Origin: Pristiophorus japonicus
Lineage: Eukaryota
Assembly: GCF_044704955.1 (NCBI RefSeq)
Contig: NC_091987.1
Span: 208,258,001 to 208,322,000, forward strand
Reading direction: 5' to 3'
DNA length: 64,000 bases
Shown: one piece after another, positions 734 through 54,931 of the stretch
Numbering within the stretch: the stretch's first letter is position 1
How the letters are laid out: each line of letters opens with the position of its first letter
The notes under the pieces: model-generated
Databases searched by the model: none
The model's input: only the letters and a program-made list of their open reading frames with translations
Told to the model about the DNA's origin: nothing
Made by a program: the position numbers and the translations under genes

Positions 734-1010
734 TGTAATGTGTGCACCTGAGAGTACGCTCACAGGTTTGTAGAGCTATTGGGTTGGGAGTGGCTTAGCC
801 AGTCACGTGATGTTCACACGACTCAATAAAACCCCAGCCAGATGGATTCGGGGGATCCACGATGAGGCAGGTGGTTGTGAGCCTGGTAGATGAACTGGTA
901 ATGTGTAGTGTGATTGTTAAACCTTTTTTGCTAATAAACCAACTAGTTCTTAATAGCAAGGTGTTGCTATGAATTCTTAAGCAAAGAACCCATGAAGCAA
1001 ATACATTGCA
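734..1010 (+). mobile_element. Solo LTR (about 277 bp), uninterrupted copy
   Basis: Starts TGTAATGT and ends ACATTGCA (TG..CA, inverted termini). Contains AATAAA and a GTCACGTGA E-box. Flanks tagg/aagg may be an imperfect TSD. A homologous but interrupted copy lies at 51388-54822. Confidence 0.75.
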
Positions 1011-1169
1011 AAGGGAGACGGGGAAGGAATCAGATATAGAGCCAGTGCTGCGATAGTGTTGCACATTTCCTGGAGATAAAGGGCAGGATAACCTCTGAAC
1101 AGATTACCGGGTCACCCTTGCAGTTGCCCTCACACTGGGGGAATGAGCGGAACTACGTTTCTCTCTTAA

Positions 1170-1545
1170 TCAATTTTTCTCAGCCAATTTTCTCCCATCC
1201 TCTTCTCTGAAGGAAGTTGATTCCTTGCTGGGCGAAAGTTCCATCAACCTGCAACAGCTCACCCAGGCTCTTCTGGTCAGAGTCTTACCAATGAGTGTCT
1301 GTAGCCCATTACTAGGAACTGGAGAGGGCATCGTAGCTGAGCTCAATTCTGTCCTTACCCAACGGAGGTTGCTGGTTAGTGGTCAGGAACAGGAATCCTG
1401 GCTGATTTTCCTGTCCTTAACATGTGTACTGAGAACAATTGTACCGCTCCTACACAGAGTTAAGATTTTCTAAGGATTGAACTGGGGCCTCCTGGTTTGT
1501 GTGGGTCAACTAGTCATTGGATGTACTTGCTAAGTTGTTGGGGGA
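1170..1545 (-). mobile_element. Old tRNA-derived SINE-like repeat (family B), degenerate
   Basis: Reversed B-box-like ggattgaact near 1473 and a ggaatcctggctgattttcc motif shared with 43480-43800, 50525-50790 and 57360-57500. Confidence 0.4.
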
Positions 1546-1824
1546 CTCAAAATCAACATTTTGAAGCTGACTAGAGGCTCTCACAGGACTGTGACACCGC
1601 ATTATGTCAACACTTTATTAAACAGAGGCACATCTATGGGCCCGATAGCTAATATAAAATTCATGAAGGTGCAGGTGATACCTTCTTTAAGCTGTTAGAT
1701 TACAGTAATTACTCGGGATCTTGTAGCTTTTTTTTAAGTATTTCATTTGACCTACGAACATAAAGAAATAATATTTCAATCACTGTAGTCTGGGAGTGTT
1801 GTAATTTAAAGGCACTGTTAAAAT

Positions 1825-2950
1825 AAAGACATATATTTATATAGCGCCTTTCAGGACCTCAAGACCTCCCAAAGCACTTTACAGCCAATGAAGTACTTTT
1901 GAAGTGTAGTCACTGCTGTAATGTGGGAAACACAGCAGCCAATTTGCACACAGCAAGCTCCCACAAACAGCAATGTGGTAATGACCAGATAATCTGTGTG
2001 ACTGATGTTGGGTCAGAGATAATTGCTGGCCAGGACACTGGGGAAAATTCCCCTGCTTTTCTTCAAAATAGTACCAGGGGATCTTTTATATTCATCTTTA
2101 ATATTCACGGTTAAGAAAGAAAATGGCATGTTGGCCTTCATAGCGAGGGGATTTGAGTACAGGGGCAGGGAGGTGTTACTACAGTTGTACAGGGCCTTGG
2201 TGAGGCCACACCTGGAGTATTGTGTACAGTCTTGGTCTCCTAACTTGAGGAAGAACATTCTTGCTATTGAGGGAGTGCAGCGAAGGTTCACCAGACTGAT
2301 TCCCGGGATGGCGGGACTGACATATCAAGAAAGACTGGATCAACTGGGCTTGTATTCACTGGAGTTCAGAAGAATGAGAGGGGATCTCATCGAAACGTTT
2401 AAAATTCTGACGGGTTTAGACAGGTTAGATGCAAGAAAAATGTTCCCAATGTTGGGGAAGTCCAGAACCAGGGGTCACAGTCTAAGGATAAGGGGTAAGC
2501 CATTTAGGACCGAGATGAGGAGAAACTTCTTCACCCAGAGGAGTGGTGAACCTGTGGAATTCTCTACCACAGAAAGTTGTTGAGGCCAATTCACTAAATA
2601 TATTCAAAAAGGAGTTAGATGTAATCCTTACTACTAGGGGGATCAAGGAGTATGGCGAGAAAGCAGGAATGGGATATTGAAGTTGCATGTTCAGCCATGA
2701 ACTCATTGAATGGCGGTGCAGGCTCGAAGGGCCGAATGGCCTAATCCTGCACCTATTTTCTATGTTTCTATGTTTCTATCTGAGAGTCCAGACGGGGCCT
2801 TGATTTTAATGTCTCATCCGAAAAACTGTACCTCTGACAGTACAGTGCTCCTGCATTGGGAGTGTCAGCCTAGATTTATGTGCTCAAGTCTCTGGAGTGG
2901 AACTTGAACCAACAACCTTCTGACAGAAGCGTAGGTGCTACCCACTGAAT
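1825..2950 (-). mobile_element. SacSINE1-like DeuSINE split by a CR1 insertion
   Basis: The tail and Deu domain (1825-2100) and the head (2780-2950) align with the intact copy at 8768-9230. Confidence 0.8.
2108..2779 (+). mobile_element. CR1 LINE 3' fragment
   Basis: ORF2 C-terminus [15 protein letters not shown]...RRMRGDLIE and a (TATGTTTC)n tail. Confidence 0.92.
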
Positions 2951-3703
2951 GCAGGTCAGGATTTTGTGCTCATGGTTCTTGAGGCGAGAATGCTACCAAC
3001 TGAACCAGCATTTGCCAGTCTGAAATGTCTGGGTTACAATTATGGCTCTTTTTGCCTTTCTGCGGAAATGAGCAAGATTAATTACTCTGCTGTTAAATGT
3101 GTTAATTCCTTAAAGAGGAATTTATCGTTCTGCAAGTTTAGGTAATTAAACCTTAGTTAACATGGGGTTAAAAGGAAGATGAGATAGAACCATCGTAATT
3201 TGCTTTGTATGTGTAGCCATGGAGTTACTGCAGAGGTTGTAAAATATTTATTTTACTTTGGGTATAAAAATTAAGAATTAAGCATATTTACACGTTGCAA
3301 TCCATCATTGAACTGTGCCATCCCATTCTAGCAACTGAATAAAATATACTTCATTGGCTGTGAAGCGCTTTGGGATGTCCTGAGGTTGTGAAAGGCGCTA
3401 TGCAAATGCAAGTTCTTTCTTTCTTTGAATACGATAAGAATTATGAGCCCCATGGTACATTACGGTAGAAATAATAAAAAAGTCTATTCGAAGTAAACCT
3501 GCTCCTAAGTTTGCCCAGCACAGAGAGGGTAAAGTTAGATTGGCGTTCCAGTACTTAGTTGGATGTATTAAAGTATAATGGCAGCTAAAACCCTGAGCTT
3601 TTACATATGAGCACACATTAAAATGTTCCTAATATAAGGTACATGTTCATTCCGCAGGAGTGAAGATGGTGGGACTGATTCGAGTCCAGGCTGAGCTATA
3701 TCC

Positions 3704-3769
3704 CTAGGATGTAGCATTTCGCTGGTTTGAGCCCGAGTTAACTCTTCCTTTCTTCAAGAGATGCCTGAT
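3704..3769 (-). CDS. NFKBID: Nuclear IkappaB (IkappaBNS) last coding exon, IRHLLKKGRVNSGSNQRNATS*
   Basis: Acceptor ctttacag, phase 0 continuing the exon at 7123-7287, TAG stop at 3704-3706. Resembles the C-terminal LRQLLKR/IRRILKG of NFKBID/NFKBIZ. Confidence 0.8.
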   Translation of the reverse strand: MRHLLKKGRVNSGSNQRNATS

Positions 3770-3942
3770 CTGTAAAGCCATAAACATGTTCACAGTAAGC
3801 TTCAAGTCATAGAATAAATTCACTTTTTTTAATGTTTAAAAATACATTATAGTGCCGGAAGCATAACAAGCAAATCAATATTACAGTGTAGTGCTGCCAT
3901 CCATGTAGCGAGGGTAGCAAAAGTGAGTCTGGATCATCCTCT

Positions 3943-4245
3943 CACTCCAGAGACTTGAGCACAAACATCTAGACTCCAGTGCAGAGCTGAGGGAGCACTG
4001 CACTGTCAGCAGTGCCATCTTTCGGATGAGACATTAAAACCAAGGCTCCATCTGGCCTCTCAGATGAACATAAAAGATCCCATGGCACTATTTCGAAGAA
4101 GAGCAGGGGAGTTATCCCCGGTGTCCTGGCCAATATTTATCCCTCAACCTACATCACTAAAACAGACTATGGTCATTATCACATCGCTGTTTGTGGGAGC
4201 TTGCTGTGTGCAAATTGGCTGCCGCGTTTCCCACATTACAACAGT
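3943..4245 (+). mobile_element. SacSINE1-like DeuSINE, partial
   Basis: Deu-domain core AAAGATCCCATGGCACT..GAAGAGCAGGGG..CCCCGGTGTCCTGGCCAA. Confidence 0.8.
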
Positions 4246-4809
4246 AATCTATCTGTGCTGACAACAAGGGAGGCTGTTAGCACTGCATTTTGCAAAGTTA
4301 GTCCCTTTTGCTCAATGTAATAGGTTCCCTGCACATGAAGAACAGATGCAGAGAGCCTAGCAAGCAGCTGGATTGGCTGGGATGCAGGGAATCTGCACGA
4401 GGCAGCAGTTCTTAAAAGGCCTGCTGCTTGACCTTAGAGGTGCAATGCATTTTTGAAGTGGCAAAATAGTTTGGTCTCTGTCACAAGGAATGATTGCAGT
4501 TTCCAGAATTTGTGTAAACATACCTTGGGGATATGTGGCCTGCAGAAATGCTGTGAGGCCTAACGTGCTTACCAAGGAAGATTTAGAGGTCATGAGATAC
4601 AGCAGAGGACAATTGCCCTCTTGGCAGTGGAAGGGTATCCCTTTGTGAAAGCAGAGGTGGAGTCTGCCTGGTGAGAGGTAGCCCAGAAAAGGAATGTAAT
4701 CTGCCATATATACGGACATGGGAGAGGGGTGCGTGTGGGCAGAATGAGGAAGACCGTTTCTGATTATTTCAAGCACTGGCAAGGTATGTGTGCTCACGTC
4801 TGCACACAA

Positions 4810-5214
4810 GCATAGTGGTTATGTTACTGGATTATCCAGAGCCCTGAGTTCAAATCCCACCACGGCAGTTAGGGGATATAAATTCAGTTAATTAAATAAA
4901 TCTGGAAGAAAAAGCTAGGATCAGTAATGGTGACCATGATTGTCGTTAAAAAACAATCTGGTTCACTAATGTCCTTTAGGGAAGGAAATCTGCCGTCCTT
5001 ACCCGGTCTGACCTATAGGTAACTCCAGACCCACAGCAATGTGGTTGACTCTTAACTGCTCTCTGTAATGGCCTAGCGAGCCACTTAGTTGGACCAAACC
5101 ATCACACGGACTGCAGCAGTTCTAGAAGGCGGCTCACCACCGTCTTCTCAAGGATGGACAATAAATGCTGCCCTTGCCAGCGACGCCCACATCCCATGAA
5201 CGAATAAAAAAAAA
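4810..5214 (+). mobile_element. tRNA-derived SINE with poly(A) tail (distinct family)
   Basis: A-box-like catagtggtt, B-box gagttcaaatccc, and a 3' end aataaatgctg...cccacatcccatgaacgaat(A)n. Confidence 0.7.
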
Positions 5215-5561
5215 CGGGGGTGAAATGCAACATTAGCAAAAGGGCTGGTAGTGTATCAGTCGCCCGTTATAAAACCCCACCTGATTTACCTTTCCATTGA
5301 AGAATTGGTGGGGAAGATTGACCGGATTGGCCAATTCACTACCGCCCCTCATTCACCATCGCCGAAGTTGAATTTCATCACAATAATGCTACTGGGGAAT
5401 AGCACACATGGCAACAAGCCAGACCTGTGGGCTGCAGCTCGCTCAGGGAGGCCTCTTGCCAAGTAAGGAGGCAACCTTTCCCTCTTTTCTATGCCGTCTA
5501 TTATTGCCAAAATAGTTTGCGCTGTGACACATAAAGGTTGCAAGGTGTGCTTACAAACAAC

Positions 5562-6190
5562 AGGGCCTTCATAGCGAGGGGATTTGGGTACAGGGGCAGG
5601 GAGGTGTTATTACAGTTGTACAGGGCCTTGGTGAGGCCACACCTGGAGTATTGTGTACAGTTTTGGTCTCCTAACTTGAGGAAGGACATTCTTGCTATTG
5701 AGGGAGTGCAGCGAAGGTTCACCAGACTGATTCCCGGGATGGCGGGACTGACATATCAAGAAAGATTGGATCAACTGGGCTTGTATTCACTGGAGTTCAG
5801 AAGAATGAGAGGGGATCTCATAGAAATGTTTAAATTCTGACGGGTTTAGACAGGTTAGATGCAGGAAGAATGTTGGGGAAGTCCAGAACCAGGGGTAACA
5901 GTCTAAGGATAAGGGGTAAGTCATTTAGGACGAGATGAGGAGAAACTTCTTCACCCAGAGAGTGGTGAACCTGTGGAATTCTCTACCACAGAAAGTTGTT
6001 GAGGCCAATTCACTAAATATATTCAAAAAGGAGTTAGATGTAGTCATTACTACTAGGGGGATCAAGGGGTATGGCGAGAAAGCAGGAATGGGGTACTGAA
6101 GTTGCATGTTCAGCCATTAACTCATTGAATGGCGGTGCAGGCTCGAAGGGCCGAATAGCCTACTCCTGCACCTATTTTTCTATGTTTCTA
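5562..6190 (+). mobile_element. CR1 LINE 3' fragment
   Basis: Same ORF2 C-terminus and TATGTTTC tail as 2108-2779. Confidence 0.92.
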
Positions 6191-6198
6191 GAAACTGT

Positions 6199-11915: not shown

Positions 11916-12350
11916 TACAACAACTTATATTTATATAGCGCCTTTAACATAGTGACACGGCCCAAGGCGCTTCACAGGAGTATTATGAGATTTTAAAAAA
12001 TTGACACCGAGCCGCATAAGAAGAAATTAGGGCGGGTGACCAAAGACTTGGTCAAAGAGGTAGGTTTTAAGGAGCGTCTTGAAGGAGGAAAGGGAGGTAG
12101 AGAGGCGGAGAGGCTTAGGCAGGGAGTTCCAGAGCTTGGGCCCTAGGCAACAAAAGGCACGGCCACCAATAGATGAGTGATTATAATCAGGGATGCTTAA
12201 GAGGGCAGAATTAGAGGAGCGCAGACATCTCAGGGGGTTGTGGGACTGAAAGATATTACAGAGATAGGGAAGGGCGAGGCCATGGAGGAATTTTAAAAAA
12301 AGGATTAGAATTTTGAAATCGAGGCATTGCTTAACCGGGAGCCAATGTAG
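11916..12350 (-). mobile_element. L2 LINE 3' fragment
   Basis: LHWLPV..FKIL..RAF..GPKLWNSLP..FKTLLKTYLF and a (TTG)n tail. Confidence 0.88.
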
Positions 12351-12421
12351 ATAAAGATTTAACAAGCAGGCAGGTCTTACAGAAACAAAATATGTTCCTT
12401 GGATATTCAGTGATTGGCACT

Positions 12422-13011
12422 CCACGCAGCGCGGAGGCCCTGACCTTAGAGGGAACGTCAGCGGCAAATCGGGGCCATAAAAGGAGCGATGAGCGGCGGC
12501 CATGGGCAGCGTGGAGGCGTGCCACTACCAGGTACAGCGCGAGCTGGTGCAGGAGGGCGACGGCTGTGAAGAGTGACATCATCAAGATCCAGGTCGGTGA
12601 TTGGAGCGTGGGCAGATACAGCAGGAGCGGCGAGGTCGGGGCGAGGGAGCGGCGAGAGACTGTGGAGGGAAGTGATCGGGGCCCAGGGGAGGCGCGAGTT
12701 CGGGGCCAGGAGCCCAGGGGCAGCATGGGCCCAGCCCACACTGCGATATGTGTACGCACTAGGTCTGTGCAGCAGAGCTGGTCTCCAGTTGTCTTGGGTA
12801 ATCCTTACCACTGGACCAAGACCTAGCTCTGTCAAGCCCGTGTCGTGGCTGGGGTGCAACAGGCACCCCACGTTAAACAAATACACGCACAGGCATCTTC
12901 CACCCTTCAGGATGTAGTTCGGGTCCATCATTGAAACACCTGTGAACTCGTCCTTTTTTTGGTGTGGAAGCAAGTCATGCTCGTTTCGAGGGACCGTCTA
13001 TGATGATGATA
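12422..13011 (+). mobile_element. Non-coding GC-rich retroposon with RTE-like (TGA)n tail
   Basis: TSD attggcact/atcggcact. Ends gtggaagcaagtcat..gagggaccgtcta(tga)n. Further copies at 18343-18661 and 33930-34267. Confidence 0.7.
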
Positions 13012-13240
13012 ATCGGCACTATCTACTCATGTGCAGAATGTAAGGAGATGTAATATTAACCTAGCCCTTTTAATGTGATTGTAATCTCAGGTGCCCTATT
13101 TAATTCACCGAGAATTACAAAAATTTCAACCAGTTGGGATCCATTCTATCAGTAAGGCTGCCACAGTGTTCTCTGGCTTAATGACCTACCTGAGTGTTTG
13201 TTTCCTGCCCTTAACCCTGGTACCTGAGCTCAGCTTCTTC

Positions 13241-16200
13241 TGTTGTGTTCCTAACACAGATGAGACTGCACACAGGGCGGTTAAAGTAACAGTGACCTTC
13301 GTCTTTATTAAGACACTTCAGAGTGAGTAACAGGCTTTAGGGGCTTATATACAGTGCTCCCAAGGGATGCTGGGATCCCTTGGGACTTCAGGGGATGCGC
13401 TCCCTGGTGGCGGAAAATGGGAGTGCATGCTTTACAGATACACAACATCACTCCTCCCCAAAGTCAAAGTGAAAACTATTTATAAGGTGAGGCGGTCGGG
13501 AGCCTTTCTTTCCCTGGTGGACCGCCTCGGTACAAATGTCTGTTCTGGTGTGTTGGCTGTGCCCTTGCTGGGCTGGCATGTTGTTGGCCCTGCAGGGCTG
13601 CTGGGTGAGCCTGGCCTTGCTGGGCTGTTGGGCGTGATGGGTTCGATTTCCTGGTCCGGCATGGTGTCGTTGATCCTTTGGGTGTGTGTTGAGGACTCGA
13701 AAAAGGCGGTGTCTGCTGTGGGTTGTTCAGGGCAGTCTGTGAACCGCAGCCTCGTTTGGTCCAGGTGCTTTCTGCAAATTTGTCTATTGTCTAGTTTGAC
13801 TACAAACACCCTACTCCCTTCTTTAGCTATCACCGTGCCCGCGATCCACTTGGGACCATGTCCATAGTTTAGCACATACACAGGGTCATTTAGATCAATT
13901 TCCCGAGACACAGTGGCGCGACCATCGTTTACATTTTGTTGCTGCCGCCTGCTCTCTACCTGATCATGCAGGTTGGGGTAAACCAGCGAGAGTCTGGTTT
14001 TAAGTGTACTTTTCATGAGTAGCTCAGCCGGGGCACCCCTGTGAGCGAGTGGGGTCTTATGCGGTAGCTGAGCAGTACTCAGGACAGGCGGGTTTGGAGT
14101 GAGCCTTCTGTGACTCGTTTGAGGCTCTGTTTGATGGTTTGTACTGCCCGATCTGCCTGCCCATTGGAGGCTGGTTTAAACGGGGCCGAGGTGACATGTT
14201 TGATCTCATTGCGGGTCATGAATTCTTTCAATTCGGCACTGGTGAAACATGGCCCGTTGTCACTGACCAGTATGTCAGGCAGGCCGTGGGTGGCAAACAT
14301 GGCCCTCAGGCTTTCAATGGTGGTGGTGGCGGTGCTTCCCGACATTATTTCACATTCAATGCATTTTGAAAAAGCATCCATCACCACCAGGATCATTTTA
14401 CCGAGAAACGGGCCCGCATAGTCGACATGGATCCTCGACCATGGTCTGGAGGGCCACAAACTTAGTGGTGCCTCTCTGGGCGCATTGCTCAACTGAGCAC
14501 ATACGCTGCATTGCCGTACACAGGACTCTAAGTCAGAGTCGATACCGGGCCACCACACGTGGGATCTGGCTATCGCTTTCATTATTACTATACCCGGGTG
14601 TGTGCTATGGAGATCCGAGATGAACGTCTCCCTGCCCTTTTTGGGTAGCATTACGTGGTTACCCCACAACAGGCAGTCTGACTGAATGAACAGCTCGTCC
14701 TTTCGCCGCTGGAACGGCTTGATTAGCTCTTGCATTTCACCGGGGATGCTGGCCCAGCTCCCATGCAGTACACAGTTTTTTACTAGGGACAGCAGAGGAT
14801 CTTGGCTGGTCCAAGTCCTAATCTGGCGGGCCATGACAGGTGATTTCTCATTTTCAAATGCTTCCATGACCATCAACAAGTCTGCGGGCTGCGCCACCAT
14901 CAACAAGTTTGCAGGCTGCACCATTTCCACCCCCGTGGTGGGCAATGGTAGCTGACTGAGAGCATCTGCACAGATCTCGGTGTCTGGCCTGTGGTGGATG
15001 GTATAGTTGTACGCTGATAGCGCGAGTGCCCACTTTTTATGCGGGCTGAGGCATTAGTATTTATCCCCTTGTTTTCAGCGAACGGGGATATGAGGGGCTT
15101 GTGATCGGTTTCCAGCTCAAATTTGAGACCAAACAGGTACTGATGCATTTTCTTTACTCCGAACACACACGCTAATGCCTCTTTCTCAATCATGCTGTAG
15201 GCCCTCTCGGCCTTGGACAAGCTCCTGGAAGCATAGGCGACAGGTTGCAACTTCCCCGCAACATTAGCTTGTTGTAATACACACCCGACTCCGTCGACGA
15301 CGCATCACATGCTAGCACAAGTCTTTTACACGGGTTATACAATACAAGCAGCTTGTTGGAGCATAAAATGTTTCTGGCTTTCTCAAAAGCAATTACTTGT
15401 TTTTTTTCCCCCCATACCCAGTTCTCACCTTTACGCAATGACACATGTAAGGGCTCTAAGAGGGTGCTTAACCCCGGTAGGAAGTTACCAAAATAGTTGA
15501 GGAGTCCCAGGAATGACCGCAGCTCCGTGACGTTCTGTGGCCTGGGCGCGTTCCTGATAACCTCTGTCTTGGTGTCTGTGGGCCGAATGCCGTCCGCCGC
15601 GATCGTTCTCCCCCAAAACTCCACTTCTGTTGCCATGAAGATGCATTTCGACCTCTTCAGCCACAGCCCTACGCGATCCAGTCGCTGGAGGACCTTCTCC
15701 AGCTTTTGTAGGTGCTTGACGGTGTCCCGACCCATGACCAATATGTTGTCCTGAAAAACCACCATGCGTGGTACCGACTTGTGTAGGCTCTCCATGTTTC
15801 TCTGGAAGATCGCTGCAGCCGACCGAATTCCAAACATCTGTTGTAGATGAACAGTCCCTTTTGCGTGTTTGTGTAGGTGAGACCCTTCGAAGACTCCTCC
15901 AGTTCTTGCGTCATAAAGGCCGAAGTCAGGTCGAGCTTGGTGAATGTCTTGTCTCCTGCCAGTGTCGCAAATAGGTCATCTGCCTTAGGTAGCGGGTATT
16001 GGTCCTGTAGCGAGAAATGATTAATAGTTACTTTATAATCGCCGCAAATCCTGACCGTGCCATCACTTTTGAGTATTGGAACAATCGGGCTGGCCCACTC
16101 GCTAAATTCCACTGAGGAGATGATGCCCTCGCGTTGCAGCCTGTCCAGCTCAATTTCCACTCCCTCTCTCATCATGTGAGGTACCGCTCGCGCCTTGTGG

Positions 16201-17807
16201 TGAATGGGTCGTGCCTCTGGGACCAAGTGGATCCGCAACTTCGCCCTGGAAAAGTTTCCAATGCCTGGCTCAAAAAGGGAAGGAAATTTGTTAAGAACCT
16301 GGGTACATGAGGCCTCATCGAGTTGTGATAGCGCTCGGATGTCATCCCAGTCCAGCGAATTTTGTCCACCCAGCTCCTTCCAAGCAGTGTGGGGCCATCG
16401 CCCGGGACAATCCAGAGTGGCAGGTCATGCAACGTGCCCTCGTAGGTGACCTTGACCATGGCACTGCCCAGGATAGTGATAAGCTCTTTGGTGTACATTC
16501 TCAGTTTCATGTGGATGGGGCTCAGGGCTGGTCTGAGGGCCTTGTTACACCACAGTCTCTCAAGCATCTTTTTGCTCATGATGGATTGGCTAGCGCCAGT
16601 GTCCAGTTCCATGGCTACGGGTAAGCCATTCAATTTTATGTTTAGCATTATAGGTGGACATTTCGTCGAAATGTGTGCACCCCGTGTACTTCAGCATCTG
16701 CCTCCTCTCGCTGAGGCTCGAAATTACTTTGATCCAACATGGACCGATCTTCCTCTGGTTAGCAGGTTTTGCAGAGCTTGCAGCTTGGCTGCAAGCTCAT
16801 TGGAGGTGCCCCATTGTTCCACAGCCCTTGAAAACATATCCTTTGAAGCGGCATGAATAGGCTGAATGGAAGCCTCCACAATGCCAACAAGGTGTGAATT
16901 GCCTTGCATTCATCCTTTTGTTGCGGACTCTGAGTCATCTGGGTGCAGACTCGTGGGTTCTGCCTGTACATTTCTGCTCGCAAACACAGTTCCAGTTAAT
17001 TTATGAACATTGCTAGCACTTGTGTGCTGAGAGATTTGTTTGGTGTTATCACTGGTGCTAAACAGTGTAAACACCTGTGCTATCGCAATGGCCTTACTGA
17101 GGGTCGGTGTCTCTACAGTCAGAAGTTTTCGTAGGATGGTCTCGTGGCCAATGCCCAGAGCAAAAAAGTCTCTGAGCATTTGCTCCAGGTAGCCATCAAA
17201 CTCACATTGTCCTGCAAGTCCCTTAGCTCGGCGATGTAGCTCGCCACATCCTAACCTTCAGATCGCTGGTACGTATAGAACCGATACCTCGCCATCAGCA
17301 CGCTCTCCCTCGGGTTAAGATGCTCCCGAACCAGTGTACACAGCTCCTCATACGACTTATCTGTGGGTTTCACCGGAGCCAGAAAATTCTTCATGAGGCT
17401 GTAGGTCGGTGCCCCACAGACCGTGAGGAGAACCGCTCTCCTTTTTGCAGCTCTTCCTTCTCTGTCCAGCTCGTTGGCTACAAAGTACTGGTCTAACCAT
17501 TCGACATAGGCTTCCCAGTCCTCACCCTCTGAGAACTTCTCCAGGATGCCCACAGTTTGCTGCATCTTTGCATTGGATTTGTGTTCTCGTCGCCAGTTGT
17601 TGTGTTTGTAACACAGATGAACTGCACACAGGGAGGTTAAAGTAACAGTGACCTCAGTCTTTAATAAGACACTCCAGAGTGAGGAACAGGCCTTAGAGGC
17701 CGGCTTATATACAGTGCTCCCAAGGGATGCTGGGATCCCTTGGGACTTCAGGGGATGAGCTCCCTGGTGGCGGAACATGGGAGTGCATACTTTACAGATA
17801 CACAACA
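13241..17807 (-). mobile_element. Full-length decayed Ty3/Gypsy LTR retrotransposon
   Basis: LTRs at 13241-13447 and 17598-17807 with TGTTGTGT..ACACAACA termini. PBS TGGCGACGAG just inside the right LTR and PPT GGGGAGGAGTGA before the left LTR. Domain order gag, protease (LDTGAS), RT, RNase H (LACDAS, TDHKPL), integrase (H-H-C-C, HVDYAGP, SDNGP). Multiple frameshifts. Confidence 0.96.
13480..17565 (-). pseudogene. Gypsy gag-pol, frameshifted
   Basis: ORF pieces 17251-17808, 16910-17179, 16172-16648, 15669-16238, 15190-15837, 14900-15250, 14079-14945 and 13480-14016 tile gag-PR-RT-RH-IN. The RT motif has decayed to FQDN. Confidence 0.9.
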
Positions 17808-18342
17808 CCTACGATAGAGATAACCTTCTTCTCAGCTTGTTCTAAGCCTCTGTTTCCTTTGCTCTTGCTCTCACCTCGCTGGTTCTACCGATTCTATATC
17901 TAGAACTTTTTTTCCAAGCTCCTTTCCCCAGCAATGCACTTTGTTTCACCATCCCCCGCCATGCAAACCTGCTTGCCCTGTCCTTCTCGAAGCGTGTTGT
18001 ACTGTGCTCTAACTCCCGTGCATAGAGGCACTGTGGAGTGGAATTTTCTGTGGCGCGTAACAAGGAGGTTATCCGCATGTTTTTGTGCGTCCATTTAGCC
18101 GATGTCTATTTATACCCAAATCTCCTGACAATCTCATTGGAACGCGCTCAAGCGCAATTCTGTGTAATTAGGGACTGAGGAATGGGCTGAACTCACACCG
18201 TATATTCCTGTTCTAAGTATGAAAGTGAAAATGTCAAACTATCTATCATTCATTCACATTGGGCACAACATGCTTTAGAACCTACAATCATGGAAGCTTT
18301 TCAATTTTTAATGCAACTTGCACTGATGCCATAATAATGCAT

Positions 18343-18661
18343 GAGGCGTGAGTTCGGGGCCAGGGGCCCAGGGGCATCACGGGCCAGCCCACACTGCGAT
18401 GTGTGCGCGCACTAGGTCAGTGCAGCAGAGCTTGGTCTCCAGTCGTTTTGGGTAATCCTTGTCACTGGACCAAGACCTAGCTCTGTCAAGCCCGTGTGGT
18501 GGCTGGTGTGCAACGGCCACCACACTTAAAAAACATCCACGCACAGGCACCTTCCACCCTTCAGGATGTAGTTCGGGTCCTTCATTGAAACACCTGTGAA
18601 CTCATTCTTTTTTGGCGTGGAAGCAAGTCATCCTCGTTTCGAGGGAATGCCTATGATGATG
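18343..18661 (+). mobile_element. RTE-tailed non-coding retroposon, 5'-truncated copy
   Basis: Matches 12689-13011. TSD-like atgcat on both sides and a (TGA)n tail. Confidence 0.75.
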
Positions 18662-18890
18662 AATATGCATTCAAAGAAACAGAACATAAAGGTCAGATCT
18701 CAGTCAGGGGATACATTTTTAAAAATCCCTCAACAAATTGCAATAAAACACCAGAAAAATGACTTGGTTTCCTAAAATTCTGGGCTCAATTTTACACCCG
18801 TGTGCCAGTAGGAATAACTCGTGTGCGGCTCGTTAGCCTGTGGGCAGGGCCTTTCTAATGACCCGAGATGTGTTCGGGCGCAGTGATCAA

Positions 18891-19298
18891 TAACAACAAC
18901 AACAACAACTTGTATTTATATAGCGCCTTTAATGTAGTGAAACGCCCTAAGGCGCTTTACAGGAGTATTATGAGATTAAAAAGAATTTGGGACCGAGCCG
19001 CATAAGTAGAAATTAGCATCGGTGACCAAAATCTTGGCCAAAGAGGTAGGTTTTAAGGAGCGCCTTGAATGAGGAAAGAGAGGTAAAGAGGCGGAGAGGT
19101 TTAAGCAGGGAGTTCCAGAGCTTGGGGCCTAGGCATGGCCACCAATGGCTGAGCGATTATAATCAAGGATGCTCAAGAGGGTAGAATTAGAGGAGCGCAG
19201 ACATCTCAGGGGGTTGTGGGACTGGAGGAGATTACAGAGATAGGGAGGGGCGAGGCCATGGAGGGATTTGAAAATAAGGATGAGAATTTTGAAATCGA
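18891..19298 (-). mobile_element. L2 LINE 3' fragment
   Basis: Near copy of 11916-12350, with (CAA)n tail on the + strand. Confidence 0.85.
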
Positions 19299-47869: not shown

Positions 47870-49328
47870 GGTAACCCCACTTTTAAAAAAAGGAGGGAGA
47901 GAGAAAACAGGGAATTATAGACCGGTCAGCCTGACCTCAGTAGTGGGTAAAATGATGGAATCAATTATTAAGGATGTCATAGCAGCGCATTTGGAAAGAG
48001 GTGACATGATAGGTCCAAGTCAGCATGGATTTGTGAAAGGGAAATCATGCTTGACAAATCTTCTGGAATTTTTTGAGGATGTTTCCAGTAAAGTGGACAA
48101 AGGAGAACCAGTTGATGTGGTATATTTGGACTTTCAGAAGGCTTTCGACAAGGTCCCACACAGGAGATTAATGTGCAAAGTTAAAGCACATGGGATTGGG
48201 GGTAGTGTGCTGACATGGATTGAGAACTGGTTGTCAGACAGGAAACAAAGAGTCGGAGTAAATGGATACTTTTCAGAATGGCAGGCAGTGACTAGTGGGG
48301 TACCGCAAGGTTCTGTGCTGGGACCCCAGCTGTTTACATTGTACATTAATGATTTAGACGAGGGGATTAAATGTAGTATCTTCAAATTTGTGGATGACAC
48401 TAAGTTGGGTGTCAGTGTGAGCTGCGAGGAGGATGCTATGAGGCTGCAGAGTGACTTGGATAGGTTAGGTGAGTGGGCAAATGAATGGCAGATGAAGTAT
48501 AATGTGGATAAATGTGAGGTTATCCACTTTGGTGGTAAAAACAGAGAGACAGACTATTATCTGAATGGTGACAGATTAGGAAAAGGGAAGGTGCAACAAG
48601 ACCTGGGTGTCATGGTACATCAGTCATTGAAGGTTGGCATGCAGGTACAGCAGGCGGTTAAGAAAGCAAATGGCATGTTGGCCTTCATAGTGAGGGGATT
48701 TGAGTACAGGGGCAGGGAGGTGTTGCTACAGTTGTACAGGGCCTTGGTGAGGCCACACCTGGAGTATTGTGTACAGTTTTGGTCTCCTAACCTGAGGAAG
48801 GACATTCTTGCTATTGAGGGAGTGCAGCGAAGATTCACCAGACTGATTCTCGGGATGGCGGGACTGACCTATCAAGAAAGACTGGATCAACTGGGCTTGT
48901 ATTCACTGGAGTTCAGAAGAATGAGAGGGGACCTCATAGAAACGTTTAAAATTCTGATGGGTTTAGACAGGTTAGATGCAGGAAGAATGTTCCCAATGTT
49001 GGGGAAGTCCAGAACCAGGGGTCACAGTCTAAGGATAAGGGGTAAGCCATTTAGGACCGAGATGAGGAGAAACTTCTTCACCCAGAGAGTGGTGAACCTG
49101 TGGAATTCTCTACCACAGAAAGTAGTTGAGGCCAATTCACTAAATATATTCAAAAAGGAGTTAGATGAAGTCCTTACTACTCGGGGGATCAAGGGGTATG
49201 GCGAGAAAGCAGGAATGGGGTACTGAAGTTTCATGTTCAGCCATGAACTTATTGAATGACGGTGCAGGCTAGAAGGGCTGAATGGCCTACTCCTGCACCT
49301 ATTTTCTATGTTTCTATGTTTCTATGTT
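47870..49328 (+). mobile_element. Young 5'-truncated CR1 with an uninterrupted RT-containing reading frame (about 450 aa)
   Basis: NYRPVSLTS, QHGF, LDFQKAFDKV, GVPQGSVLGP, YINDL, FVDD, open to the natural stop at 49226. (TATGTTTC)3 tail. Confidence 0.95.
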
Positions 49329-49928: not shown

Positions 49929-51436
49929 AAAAAGTATCTCTGATTGAGCCACGAGGTAAGGTGGGTCACTAGAGATCAGATGCATAAGCGGCTTGACACA
50001 CTCTGGGCCACCAAATTGAAAAGATAATGGTAGGGCTCCCACAAACCTTAGTTTGTGAAGGAACTGTGCATTCCTAAGCACACAGACCAGGAAAGACCCA
50101 CATTGGATAGGGTTCCCAGTTCAATGCCAGGAAGTTGTTCTTATCCCAGAGAATAGTGGACCTCTGGGACAGGTTGGCATCTCGTGCAGTGGATGCTGAC
50201 CCTGCACTGAATTGTGTCGAGCGAGAGCTGGACCTGTTTCTGACTGGGGCGGAGAGCGCCTCGTACAGAAGGTAGGTACTGCAGGGAACTCAGGGCCAGT
50301 GTGCTCTCCTGGACTCGGTTCGATCGCCATGATGGGTTTAATGAGGAATCTCCCAGATCATTTCCCCCAAAGTTGGAATGTATTTTTTGGGGTCTCTCCC
50401 AGGAGATCACATGGTTTCGGGTGGGGCGAGGAGTTTTTATATTGTGATACACAAGGTATGGCAATCGTGTGGGACGGGCTGGGTGGATTGAAGGGTCTTT
50501 GCCTGTCCGTCATTGTCCGTAGTCAACCTTCAGTCTGCGCTGAGTTCACTGGTTTCAGCCAGTGGGCCAATTGGCCTCATTTTCCCTTAGCTAACGAAGG
50601 GAAAGATGCAGCCAGTGTCCCTACTGCTGGTCACAGAACGGAGCATGTGTGGATGTCAAATGTGGATGATGTTGGACTTGGCTGTGATGCCCCCCCTCCC
50701 ATAGCCGAATAACGTACCGACAAGCTTCGAAGTAGAAGCCAGAGGCTGCTGGTATCCATAGACATTCCCCTCAGCATCATTCAGTCCCTTCCATGAAAAA
50801 GGGGTCACTTTCTTTGGTTGCAGCTTCAGTTACAAGCAAATATTTGCATAAATTCCAGTGATAAATAGCCTTTAACTGGTATAGGTATAGTCAGAATGGA
50901 GACAGTTGCTCCCAAAGCAAAGTCACAGTATACCTTTCAAGGAAGTATTGCATAAAAATCTCTTAAACCATAAGCCCTCATTTCCTGTAATTTATTTTTT
51001 ATCGTAACCTGGGGCACAGATATAAAATTTGAGCTGGTATCATTTGCATTAAACTGAATGTTACTGAATGTGTCCTTAGAACACATTAGAAGTTTTCCCG
51101 CTAAAAATATAGATAGCGAAGCAAGATGCATTTGCAGAGTTGCCAAGAAGAGATGTTGCATATTTCAAGGTGTCCTGCCCTGTAGTAAAGAAGGTTTGTA
51201 ATTAAGAGTAATGATGATTTAATCACATTGCTGATTACAAGTGCTGCTTTGAGGGGCCGCAGTTGCCCGTTTTTATAGCTCCGTTAACGCCTCCGGGGGG
51301 CGCTAACGGGCGTAATGGCATTTTCGTCCGGGGAGTGGGGCGCTACTACATATAGGTTCAGGGAAGGACGAGCTTGTCTGTGATAGCTGTAACATATGCA
51401 TCTGTGACTACGCTCACAGGTTTATAGAGCTGTTGA

Positions 51437-52610
51437 TGATGGTGGAGGAGCGGGCTGGATGGCGCCAGAGGAGCTGGCACGGTGCCTATCCTGGGCCGAC
51501 ATCTGGCGCGAGGCCAATGCCATCGAGTCGCTAAAAACAGCTCTGGGCCCTGACTCCGTTAGGTGTGTGGAGGAGGCTCAAGCACGTGGGGAGCTCTCGT
51601 CCGAACTGACCCCCGTCCGGACGGAATTCCTCATCGGCGCCAAGCCCCGAAGCCTCCCTCGGGAGCCGGCGCCTCACAACTTGAGCCGCCTCGGGGAAAT
51701 CCCCTCCGTGCCTTTCAGTTCTGCGCAGAGGGGTTTCCTGTACGGGCTGCTCCTGCACACTCTCCACCTTGCCATCCTCGCCTGCCGTCCGGATACGCCA
51801 TGGCGCACCATCTTGCCATCCGGAGGAGGCGAGGGTCCCCGATGGAGCGCACTCTACGCGGGAGTCCTCCCACTATTTATCAGGGAACTTGGCCTGGAGG
51901 GTGGTGCATGGAGCAATCCCGTGCAATAAATTTTTAAGCCGGTTCACGGGCTCCCAGGCCGCCTGCAATTTCTGCGGCCTGGAAGAGTCCGTGTTCCACG
52001 TTTTTATTGAATGCACGAGGTTGCAGCCCCTGTTCCAATATTTGAAGGGGCTGCTCCTCAATTTCTGGCTGCACTTCAGTCCCACACTCCTGATCTTTGG
52101 GCACCCTGTGCGGAGGGGAGCGGGTAGGTCCGAGAGCCTCCTCGTAGGACTGCTCCTGGGCACGGCCAAGAGTGCCATCAGCCGGTCCAGGCAGCGAGCG
52201 GTCGAGGGGGTCGTTCAGCCCGACTGCCTGCCTCTCTTCCGCGCGTACATCCGGGCCAGGGTGTCCCTGGAGATGGAGCACGCGGTGTCCACCGGTACGC
52301 TGGCGGCCTTCCGCGAGAGGTGGGCGCCGGAGGGACTGGAGTGCATCATCACCCCCGGCAACCAAATTTTAATTTGATTTTTTATGTTTTAAAGTTTAAT
52401 TTGTTTTAATTGCCGGGTTTTAGTGTCCTTCTCAATAGGGGGCACTTGTAAAATTTATGGTTTTAGTGCCCAAAAAAAAACCCAAAAAGAAACACAAAAA
52501 ATCACCAAAAAAAAACATACAAAAAAAGGGCACTTGAAAAGTGTTTAGAGTGTCCCCCAGATCAGGGGGCACTTGATTTAATTGATTTATTGTTTTACGG
52601 CCAAAAAGAG
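51437..52610 (+). mobile_element. Tx1-clade LINE 3' fragment A
   Basis: LAWRVVHGA..CNFCGLEESVFHVFIEC (C-x2-C-x8-H-x4-C zinc finger) with one frameshift. 3' UTR with ggggcact repeats. Bounded by 15-bp duplications. Confidence 0.85.
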
Positions 52611-52625
52611 TTGTGGAGCTGTTGA

Positions 52626-53657
52626 TGGTGAAGGAGCGGACTGGATGGCGCGAGAGGAGCTGGCACGGCGCATATTCTTGGCCGACATCTGGCGCGAGGC
52701 CAATGCCATCGAGTCGCTAAAAACAGCACTGGCCCCTGACTCCATTAGATGTGTCGAGGAGGCTCAAGCAAGTAGGGCGATCCCGTCCGAACTGACTCCA
52801 GTCCGGACGGAATTCCTCATCGGCGCCAAGCCCCGAAACTTCCCTCGGGAGCCGGCCCCTCACAACTTGAGCCTCCTCTGGGAAATCCCCTCTGTGCCTT
52901 TCAGTTCTGTGCGGAGGGGTTTCCTGTATGGGCTGCTCCTGCACACTCTCCACTTTGCCATCCTCGCCTGCCGTCCGGACACGCCATGGCGCACCATCTT
53001 GCCGTCTGGAGGAGGCGAGGGCCCCCAATGGACTGCTCTCTACGCGGGAGCACTCCCTTTATTTATTGGGGACTTGGCCTGGAGGATGTTGCATGGAGCA
53101 GTCCTGTGCAATAAGTTTTTAAGTCGGTTCACAGACTCCCAGGCCGCCTGCAATTTCTGCGGTGAAGAGAAGTCCGTGTTCCACGTCTATGTAGTACGTG
53201 TGAGGTTGCAGCCCCTCTTCCAATATTTGAAGGGACTGCTCCTCAAATTCTGGTTGCACATCAGTCCCACACTCCTGATCTTTGGGCACCCTGTGCAGAG
53301 GGGAGCGGGCAGGTCGGAAGGCCTCCTCCTAGGTCTGCTCCTGATCACGGCCAAGGTGGCCATCAACCAGTCCAGGCAGCGGGCGGTTGAGGGGGTCCTT
53401 CAGCCCAAAGGCCTGCCTCTCTTCTTCAGTTACATCCGAGCCAGAGTTTCCTTGGAAATGGAGCACGTGGTGTCCACCGGTACGCTCGCAACTTTCTGCG
53501 AGAGATGGGCACTGGAGGGACTGGAGTGCTTCGTCACCCCTGGCAACAAAATTTTAATTTAATCCTTAATGTCTGAAGTTTAATTTGTTTAAGTTTATCG
53601 GTTTTAGTGCCCCCCTTTAATCAGGGGGCACTTGATTTATGGTTTCAACTGAAATAG
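52626..53657 (+). mobile_element. Tx1-clade LINE 3' fragment B
   Basis: Open frame of more than 300 codons homologous to copy A, ending at 53562. Hairpin agtgccccc..gggggcact in the 3' UTR. Bounded by 15-bp duplications. Confidence 0.85.
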
Positions 53658-53830
53658 TTGTAGAGCTGTTGAGTTGGGAGTGGCTTAGCCAGTCACGTGA
53701 TGTTCACAAGACTCAATAAAACCCCAGTCAGTTGGGTTCGGGGGATCCACGATGAGGCAGGTGGTTGTGAGCCTGGTGGATGAACTGGTAATGTGTAGTG
53801 TGATTGGTAAACCTTTGCTAATAAACCAAC

Positions 53831-54762
53831 AAGTTTGCAGATGACACTAAACTGGGTGGCGGTGTGAGCTGTGAGGAGGATGCTAACAGGCTGCAGGGTG
53901 ACTTGGACAGGTTAGGTGAGTGGGCAAATGCATGGCAGATGCAGTATAATGTGGATAAATGTGAGGTTATCCACTTTGGGGGCAAAAACATGAAGGCAGA
54001 ATATTATCTGAATGGCGGCAGATTAGGAAAAGGGGAGGTGCAACGAGACCTGGGTGCCATGGTTCATCAGTCATTGAAAGTTGTCATGCAGGTACAGCAG
54101 GCGGTGAAGAAGGCAAATGGTATGTTGGCCTTCATAGCGAGGGGATTTGAGTATAGGAGCAGGGAGGTCTTACTGCAGTTGTACAGGGCCTTGGTGAGAC
54201 CACACCTGGAGTATTGTGTACAGTTTTGGTCTCCTAATCTGAGGAAGGACGTTCTTGCTATTGAGGGAGTGCAGCGAAGGTTCACCAGACTGATTCCCGG
54301 GATGGCAGGACTGACATATGAGGAGAGACTGGATCAACCAGGCCTTTATTCACTGGAGTTTAGAAGGATGAGAGGGAATCTCATAGAAACATATAAGATT
54401 CTGACGGGACGGGACAGGTTAGATGTGGGTAGAATGTTCCCGATGTTGGGAAGTCCAGAATCAGGGGACACAGTCTTAGGATAGTGGGCAGGCCATTTGG
54501 GACTGAGTTGAGGAGAAACTTTTTCACTCAGAGAGTTATTGACCAGTGGAATTCCATGCCGCAGAGTGTTGTTAATGCCAGTTAATTGGCTATATTCAAG
54601 AGGGAGTTAGATATGGCCCTTACGGCTAAAGGGATCAAGGGGTATGGAGAGAAAGCAGGAAAGGTGTACTGAGGGAATGATCAGCCATGATCTTATTGAA
54701 TGGCGGTGCAGGCTTGAAGGGCCGAATGGCCTACTCCTGCACCTATTTTCTATGTTTCTATG
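53831..54762 (+). mobile_element. CR1 3' fragment inserted in the LTR
   Basis: Runs from KFADDTKL to a TATGTTTC tail, with aagtt microhomology at the 5' junction. Confidence 0.92.
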
Positions 54763-54931
54763 TAATAGCAATGTGTTGCTATGAATTCTTAAGCAAAGAA
54801 CCCATGAAGCAAATTCATTACGATACCCATCCCCAATGGTTGGAGCGCCTGCTAGCACTCATCACCTAGGCTCTTGTATGAAGAATGCAGAGGACCCAAT
54901 TTTGATTCACTACTTTCAGGAGAGGAGGAAG

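Follow-up and report, generated by a model that had tools for sequence, protein, structure and literature searches.

The described systems closest to the locus examined here are retroelements that favor particular repeats as insertion sites, and our statements about them are limited to extracts of the cited papers. Tx1L of Xenopus laevis targets another mobile element, the transposon Tx1D (PMC1950540), and the extracts of that paper make no mention of inherited 5′ ends. Among crocodilian repeats, Kojima (2015; PMC4494074) described Tx1-8_Crp, Tx1-4_AMi, Tx1-Mar, and SINEU-3, and treated a family as target-specific when one repeat makes up over 20% of its flanks. Tandem SINEU-3 copies sandwich a target site duplication (TSD) and were interpreted as sequential insertions; common truncation points in the crocodilian tandems are not mentioned in the extracts (PMC4494074). 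In R1 arrays of Drosophila 28S rDNA, neighboring tandem copies are separated by a 14-bp TSD (Stage and Eickbush 2009, PMC2718515), and the extracts of that study contain no mention of a truncation point inherited from the resident.

Work on other LINEs bears on how 5′ junctions are formed. At the ‘anneal’ 5′ junctions of R2, the cDNA pairs with homologous target DNA, for which as little as 11 bp is enough (PMC11331408), and in templated L1 insertions, DNA close by can serve as the template for the L1 cDNA in an SDSA-like step (bioRxiv 10.1101/2024.08.27.596794). In a described double insertion, distinct truncations were taken as evidence of independent insertion (PMC5932611). How LINEs complete the 5′ end and the second strand is still debated. 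Chimeras of L1 with a resident L1 have reportedly been seen in cultured cells.

Layout of the locus

The window is a stretch of 64,000 nucleotides from the 5.9 Gb genome of the shark Pristiophorus japonicus. It contains two Tx1 LINE fragments, here called copy A and copy B, stacked within one solo LTR. The relevant features, in window coordinates, are as follows.

734..1010, + strand: uninterrupted sibling solo LTR, with an empty target site at 768-782
51383..51387, + strand: ATAGC, the left 5-bp duplication flanking the host solo LTR; the right copy, ATACC at 54823-54827, has one mismatch
51388..51421, + strand: Gypsy-type solo LTR, left 34 bp, matching sibling LTR positions 1-34
51422..51436, + strand: target site, upstream copy of the 15-mer
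51437..52610, + strand: copy A, a younger 5′-truncated Tx1 LINE with the ORF2 C-terminus, a long 3′ UTR, and a GAG-type end
52611..52625, + strand: target site, middle copy of the 15-mer
52626..53657, + strand: copy B, an older 5′-truncated Tx1 LINE with the ORF2 C-terminus, a short 3′ UTR, a TAG-type end, CpG decay, and derived sites
53658..53672, + strand: target site, downstream copy of the 15-mer
53673..53835, + strand: first piece of the host LTR's right part, 93% identical to sibling 768-948
53836..54762, + strand: unrelated LINE 3′ fragment inside the host LTR, 87% identical to 48383-49319, which overlaps an RVT_1 frame
54763..54822, + strand: right end of the host LTR, 96% identical to sibling 951-1007

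The preliminary description of this DNA had reported the three 15-mers and the empty site, and all four positions match. It had also called A and B head-to-tail Tx1 3′ fragments; both encode the C-terminus of an ORF2 like that of Xenopus Tx1L, matching residues about 980-1292. The substitutions and unlike 3′ UTRs it noted are likewise present, with A and B 86.4% identical over 1039 columns. The host LTR reaches 54822 and is split a second time by the LINE fragment at 53836-54762, which we take to be CR1-like. Other solo LTR copies are, like this one, bordered by 5-bp duplications.

Two further features of the window deserve mention. The 3′ UTR has apparently been lengthened by repeats of a GGGCACTTG module, present once in B (53560-53657) and three times in A (52376-52610). 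A separate Gypsy-type element lies on the minus strand at 11917-19298, with direct repeats at 11917-12322 and 18902-19298 that are 87% alike and with broken RT, RNase H, and integrase frames.

The LINE and its host

The preliminary description had called for recovery of a full-length element, and one was found: locus L226 contains a copy of 6,445 bp with a target site on either side. Its ORF2 (2328-6197) aligns with Tx1L residues 1-1292, at 45% identity in the endonuclease and 60% in the RT region, and open frames lie upstream. The RT of a longer copy matches the Xenopus TX1 149-kDa protein at 56%, the sole family-named match among 19, and an RVT_1 domain was also found, with a weak Exo_endo_phos match in L066. 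These similarities place the LINE in the Tx1 clade, close to Xenopus Tx1L, with a predicted ORF2 that joins an N-terminal APE endonuclease to an RT and with a putative ORF1 before it. L061 was considered as a full-length Tx1 and rejected, as an unrelated Gypsy insertion lies inside it; this different Gypsy element occupies approximately 808-5400, within the 3′ UTR of a Tx1 copy.

Most copies of the host are 276-bp solo LTRs with 5-bp duplications, and the preliminary description's view that the host is a real LTR element is borne out by full-length copies with two LTRs and a Gypsy-type domain order. In L164, two LTRs surround an internal region that has a primer site (TGGCGAC) behind the 5′ LTR and also carries a purine tract. 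A search with a primer site pattern gave 30 matches, mostly chance flanks, and one of the 15 retrieved led to an internal region. Pfam found no domain in nine short frames of L164, and domains were therefore located by tblastn, which recovered the order gag/PR-RT-RH-IN in four of eight further internal regions (L233, L234, L235, and L237, 25-58% identical to the Gypsy frames of L061 and the window). By similarity, then, the host is probably a Ty3/Gypsy-type LTR retrotransposon; BEL elements have the same domain order as Gypsy.

Target preference

Two genome searches used Tx1 3′ ends only, scoring 40 of 4,938 and 40 of 2,975 candidates. Each gave 30 loci, one of them the window, which left 58 other loci for assessment. 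The target, with at most 3 mismatches, follows 45 of these 58 3′ ends (41 found by script, 4 by eye), and the LTR is present at 41. Another 13 of the 58 are off-target insertions, one of which, a 2-mismatch look-alike, is also within the 45; L057 is ambiguous. Random 3′ flanks, named beforehand by the preliminary description as a refuting outcome, were thus not seen, and its proposal of a site-specific, LTR-targeting Tx1 family stands as a strong preference, though not as an absolute one. With the same repeat found at the same position and in the same orientation at 41 of 58 loci, the LINE is target-specific by the 20% rule of Kojima (2015).

Genome-wide counts give the scale of this preference. 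Exact junctions of the element's end with the target number 6,830 of the TAG type and 2,670 of the GAG type. The preliminary description had proposed counting occupied against empty LTRs; among 1,367 exact sites comprising the target plus the right LTR, the element's AG precedes 900, although exact-pattern counts overlook mutated copies and may over-represent occupied sites. A sample drawn with the LTR as query gave 29 parsed sites, 11 occupied and 18 empty. Thousands of insertions of the LINE lie at a single 15-base site of the LTR, where its copies pile up.

Single insertions duplicate 14-15 bp in 20 of 24 cases. At four off-target sites (L004, L014, L017, and L050), the downstream copy of the duplicated sequence starts with TT and the upstream copy is without one or both T, suggesting that the first TT of the downstream site may be encoded by the element. 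The 15-mer is a duplication whose downstream copy apparently takes its first one or two T from the element.

We also asked how far these counts could arise with a LINE that has no site specificity, if the LTR element had simply spread one LTR carrying a chance insertion. Tx1 pieces do lie in both the 5′ and 3′ LTRs of full-length Gypsy copies, as such spread would produce, yet we count 157 distinct combinations of locus and start, the solo LTRs that serve as hosts have 5-bp duplications of their own, and the sites in the LTR-query sample are mostly empty. Off-target insertion sites, moreover, also begin with TTG. We therefore regard this explanation as extremely improbable.

Other observations concern individual sites. 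Two off-target insertions, L035 and L050, have similar 3′ flanks, possibly from a second repeat that serves as a minor target; L050 also carries a stack with a common start, at a site outside the LTR. L008 is an insertion with its own duplication in a putative SINE head, which we presume to be tRNA-derived. Across L089-L118, the 15-mer seems more altered in empty sites than in occupied ones, a comparison that is based on a small sample and confounded by the element-encoded TT. At L106, L238, L267, and L051, insertions of 12-19 bases, comprising the element's 3′ tip only, lie between full target copies.

Shared 5′ starts

On the reference element, copy A starts at 2197 and copy B at 2200, a feature that the preliminary description did not report. 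The two starts are no more than 3 bases apart, and no other start among the 157 mapped falls within 25 bases of them. At first sight, this common start favors duplication. It is also common elsewhere: both starts could be mapped in 158 adjacent pairs, and they lie within 3 bases of each other in 93 of these, in 60 of 70 arrays, versus 95 of 16,930 pairs (0.6%) in a cross-locus control. Complete arrays contain 1 to 9 copies.

These counts include a sample of 60 GAG-junction loci on contig C1, 58 taken in list order, skipping two already included, and 2 hand-picked for clustered matches; 13 overlapping locus-strand entries were removed before pairs were counted. The C1 sample gave the same start in 62 of 100 pairs, and in 52 of 88 by hand count when the hand-picked loci are left aside. 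A separate sample of 40 TAG-junction loci, also in list order with five already included skipped, gave the same start in 5 of 11 pairs and in 3 of 7 multi-copy loci. An assembly artefact was rejected as the source of the arrays, since their units are mostly 85-96% alike and not near-identical.

Could independent insertions break off at the same place, at a hot spot resembling the target? Microhomology priming is known for R1 and R2 (PMC2718515), and the microhomology at reused starts is slightly longer than at other starts (0.60 vs 0.35 bases, p 0.15). The match to the 14 target bases, on the other hand, averages 3.75 at reused starts, 3.37 at single-use starts, and 3.49 over all positions (p 0.11), the 60 reused starts are spread over 52 different 4-base bins, and different loci share starts only at the control rate given above. 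A hot spot is accordingly highly improbable. Both this explanation and the spread of a single LTR were tested and are rejected for most pairs.

Where starts differ, the direction of the difference is informative. In pairs that adjoin the left LTR, 35 upstream copies begin where their neighbor does, 10 are shorter, and 3 are longer; capture of a cDNA once it has come to the start of the resident would give this pattern. Across all 158 pairs, the upstream copy is shorter in 42 and longer in 23, and internal sites are therefore also used.

Some loci are arranged differently. In L224, L269, L009, and L066, arrays or LTR halves face each other in inverted arrangements, with the two strands sharing a start in L224 and L269. 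L257 and L258 lie ~10 kb apart with a common start at 4363, and are possibly a single array split by a large insertion.

Probable independent insertion and age order

Plain tandem duplication, whether by slippage or by unequal crossover between the 15-bp repeats, would give identical starts, junction bases included, and would make neighbors nearest relatives with equal divergence. The starts are as it predicts; the relationships and divergences are not. Of 62 testable pairs, only 10 have the downstream neighbor as the closest relative of the upstream copy, and the end class, a coarse three-letter label, differs in 36 of 79 same-start pairs. In the window, B is no closer to A than are 28 of the 32 copies elsewhere, against the preliminary description's second refuting outcome, in which A and B would be each other's closest relatives. 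B has A as its closest match, though only narrowly (87.7% vs 87.4%), and forcing A and B together costs 36 log-likelihood units at a p-AU of 0.057, which falls short of formal rejection. The divergences are unequal, with 87 derived differences in B versus 26 in A (p 7e-9) and CpG decay of 23 versus 7.

A few pairs resemble real duplicates, such as L037, whose units are 95.8% alike, versus 92.4% for the best match outside, and share 12 of 18 rare alleles along their length. Pairs at L037, L195, L202, and L205 share alleles far inside, and true duplication or later gene conversion therefore also occurs. Plain duplication thus holds for a minority of pairs and is contradicted for most, the window pair included; as the general explanation of shared starts, we judge it very unlikely.

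The arrays also have a consistent age polarity. In 52 arrays whose first and last copies were compared, CpG decay is lower in the upstream copy in 31 and higher in 14, with 7 ties (p 0.016), and its rare alleles are fewer in 34 and more numerous in 15, with 3 ties (p 0.009). End classes of adjacent copies follow the order GAG-TAG in 48 pairs and TAG-GAG in 7, with the same class in 100. The newer copy thus stands 5′ of the older, as in R1-type stacking, with a polarity that is not strict given the 7 reverse-order pairs.

What neighbors do share is concentrated at their 5′ ends. An initial sliding-identity test was weak, with 2-4 points over control in the first 80 bases, and a test based on rare alleles was clearer. 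Across 81 same-start pairs, we scored rare non-CpG alleles of the downstream copy that are also found in the upstream copy: 31 of 55 are shared at offsets 1-10, 8 of 33 at 11-20, 31 of 172 at 21-100, 44 of 450 at 101-400, and 21 of 409 beyond. In the window, A and B are 93% identical over the first 100 bases, where B is 84% identical to others, and 7 of the 11 minority alleles common to A and B lie within the first 72 of 925 bases, 4 of these 7 at CpG sites. It is likely that the first ~75 bases of copy A were copied from B.

Age polarity and chimeric upstream copies are also what one would predict if duplication came first and the upstream 3′ part was then overwritten with a younger subfamily, either by gene conversion or by another insertion attempt made afterwards at the middle site. 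Patches of shared alleles in mid-body, as in L202 and L195, are consistent with this. Overwriting should spread the switch points along the copies, yet sharing collapses after about 10-100 bases; it also needs two events per unit, and of the many un-overwritten duplicates it would leave behind, few are seen. We consider such a history unlikely.

A model of stacked insertion

We consider it likely, with good confidence, that A and B are separate insertions at one preferred site of a Gypsy-type LTR, and that the later copy A took its 5′ end from the resident B. Beyond the observed preference for site and orientation, duplication length, common starts, 5′-biased shared tract, and age polarity, we infer the position of the nick, the pairing of the RNA with the primer, and the annealing of cDNA to the resident top strand from fossil copies that are 85-95% alike. 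The first step would be an endonuclease nick in the bottom strand, at the target's left edge, after which the 3′ TT of the RNA would pair with the primer and start cDNA synthesis. Where the site is empty, a cut in the top strand 14-15 bases downstream would yield an ordinary duplication, with the truncation point left to chance. Where the site is occupied, insertion at its upstream duplication would find, in the top strand past the target, the resident's 5′ end, which would be complementary to the cDNA. The cDNA might then anneal to the resident top strand, which would prime the second strand.

The duplication would thereby extend into the resident, mostly by under 20 bases, often by up to 100, and at times through a whole short stub, and the new copy would therefore start at the old copy's start. 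Such extension through a stub into the resident would also yield the repeated stub and site found in L051, L077, L172, L179, and L201, where the stubs have near-identical 3′ ends and the long copies behind them differ at the 3′ side, and in L267, where a 12-base stub is repeated in the same manner. With repeated rounds, arrays would grow in which the age of the copies increases from the 5′ end to the 3′ end. Capture of the resident top strand could come about by a late nick in that strand, by strand invasion, or by a template jump, and the three would look alike in the resulting copies.

More generally, we think it reasonably probable that stacked insertions of this LINE arise mainly through homology-guided 5′ joining to the resident, and that thousands of LTR sites then act as ordered recorders, which gain newer subfamilies at one end and keep the founder's truncation point. 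The top strand then need not be cut at +15, and capture could take place hundreds of bases downstream.

Comparison with known systems

Targeting of LTRs by Tx1 elements and stacking at the upstream duplication are both of kinds already published, the first in crocodilians and the second for R1. LTR targeting alone is therefore a new example of a published habit, and the inherited 5′ end is the less usual feature. Within the searchable literature, to which subscription papers and Repbase Reports do not belong, we found no report of inherited truncation points or of shared truncation in tandem LINEs. A common start would ordinarily be read as duplication, and the arrays weaken both that reading and the rule of thumb that takes distinct truncations as the sign of independent insertion. 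Ordered arrays could also provide a direct chronology of subfamilies.

Tx1L (ORF2 = YTX2, P0003) is likewise a two-ORF APE-RT LINE, similar to the shark LINE to the degree given above for endonuclease and RT region, but its target is the DNA transposon Tx1D, whereas the shark LINE targets a Gypsy LTR. The crocodilian Tx1 families resemble it by described habit, inserting preferentially in specific LTR retrotransposons (PMC4494074). New R1 copies enter the TSD at the resident's 5′ end (PMC2718515), as newer copies mostly seem to do here; the R1 target is rDNA and the shark target an LTR. In the R2 and L1 systems, the homology that cDNA can use is engineered, upstream, or rare, and here it would be supplied by a resident sibling downstream of the nick. 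The arrays amount to a natural experiment over very many loci, suggesting that what guides the junction is a stretch of 10-100 bases of homology lying downstream of the nick. Unlike in R2 and L1, resident homology appears to be used in about half of the stacked insertions, and its use builds ordered arrays.
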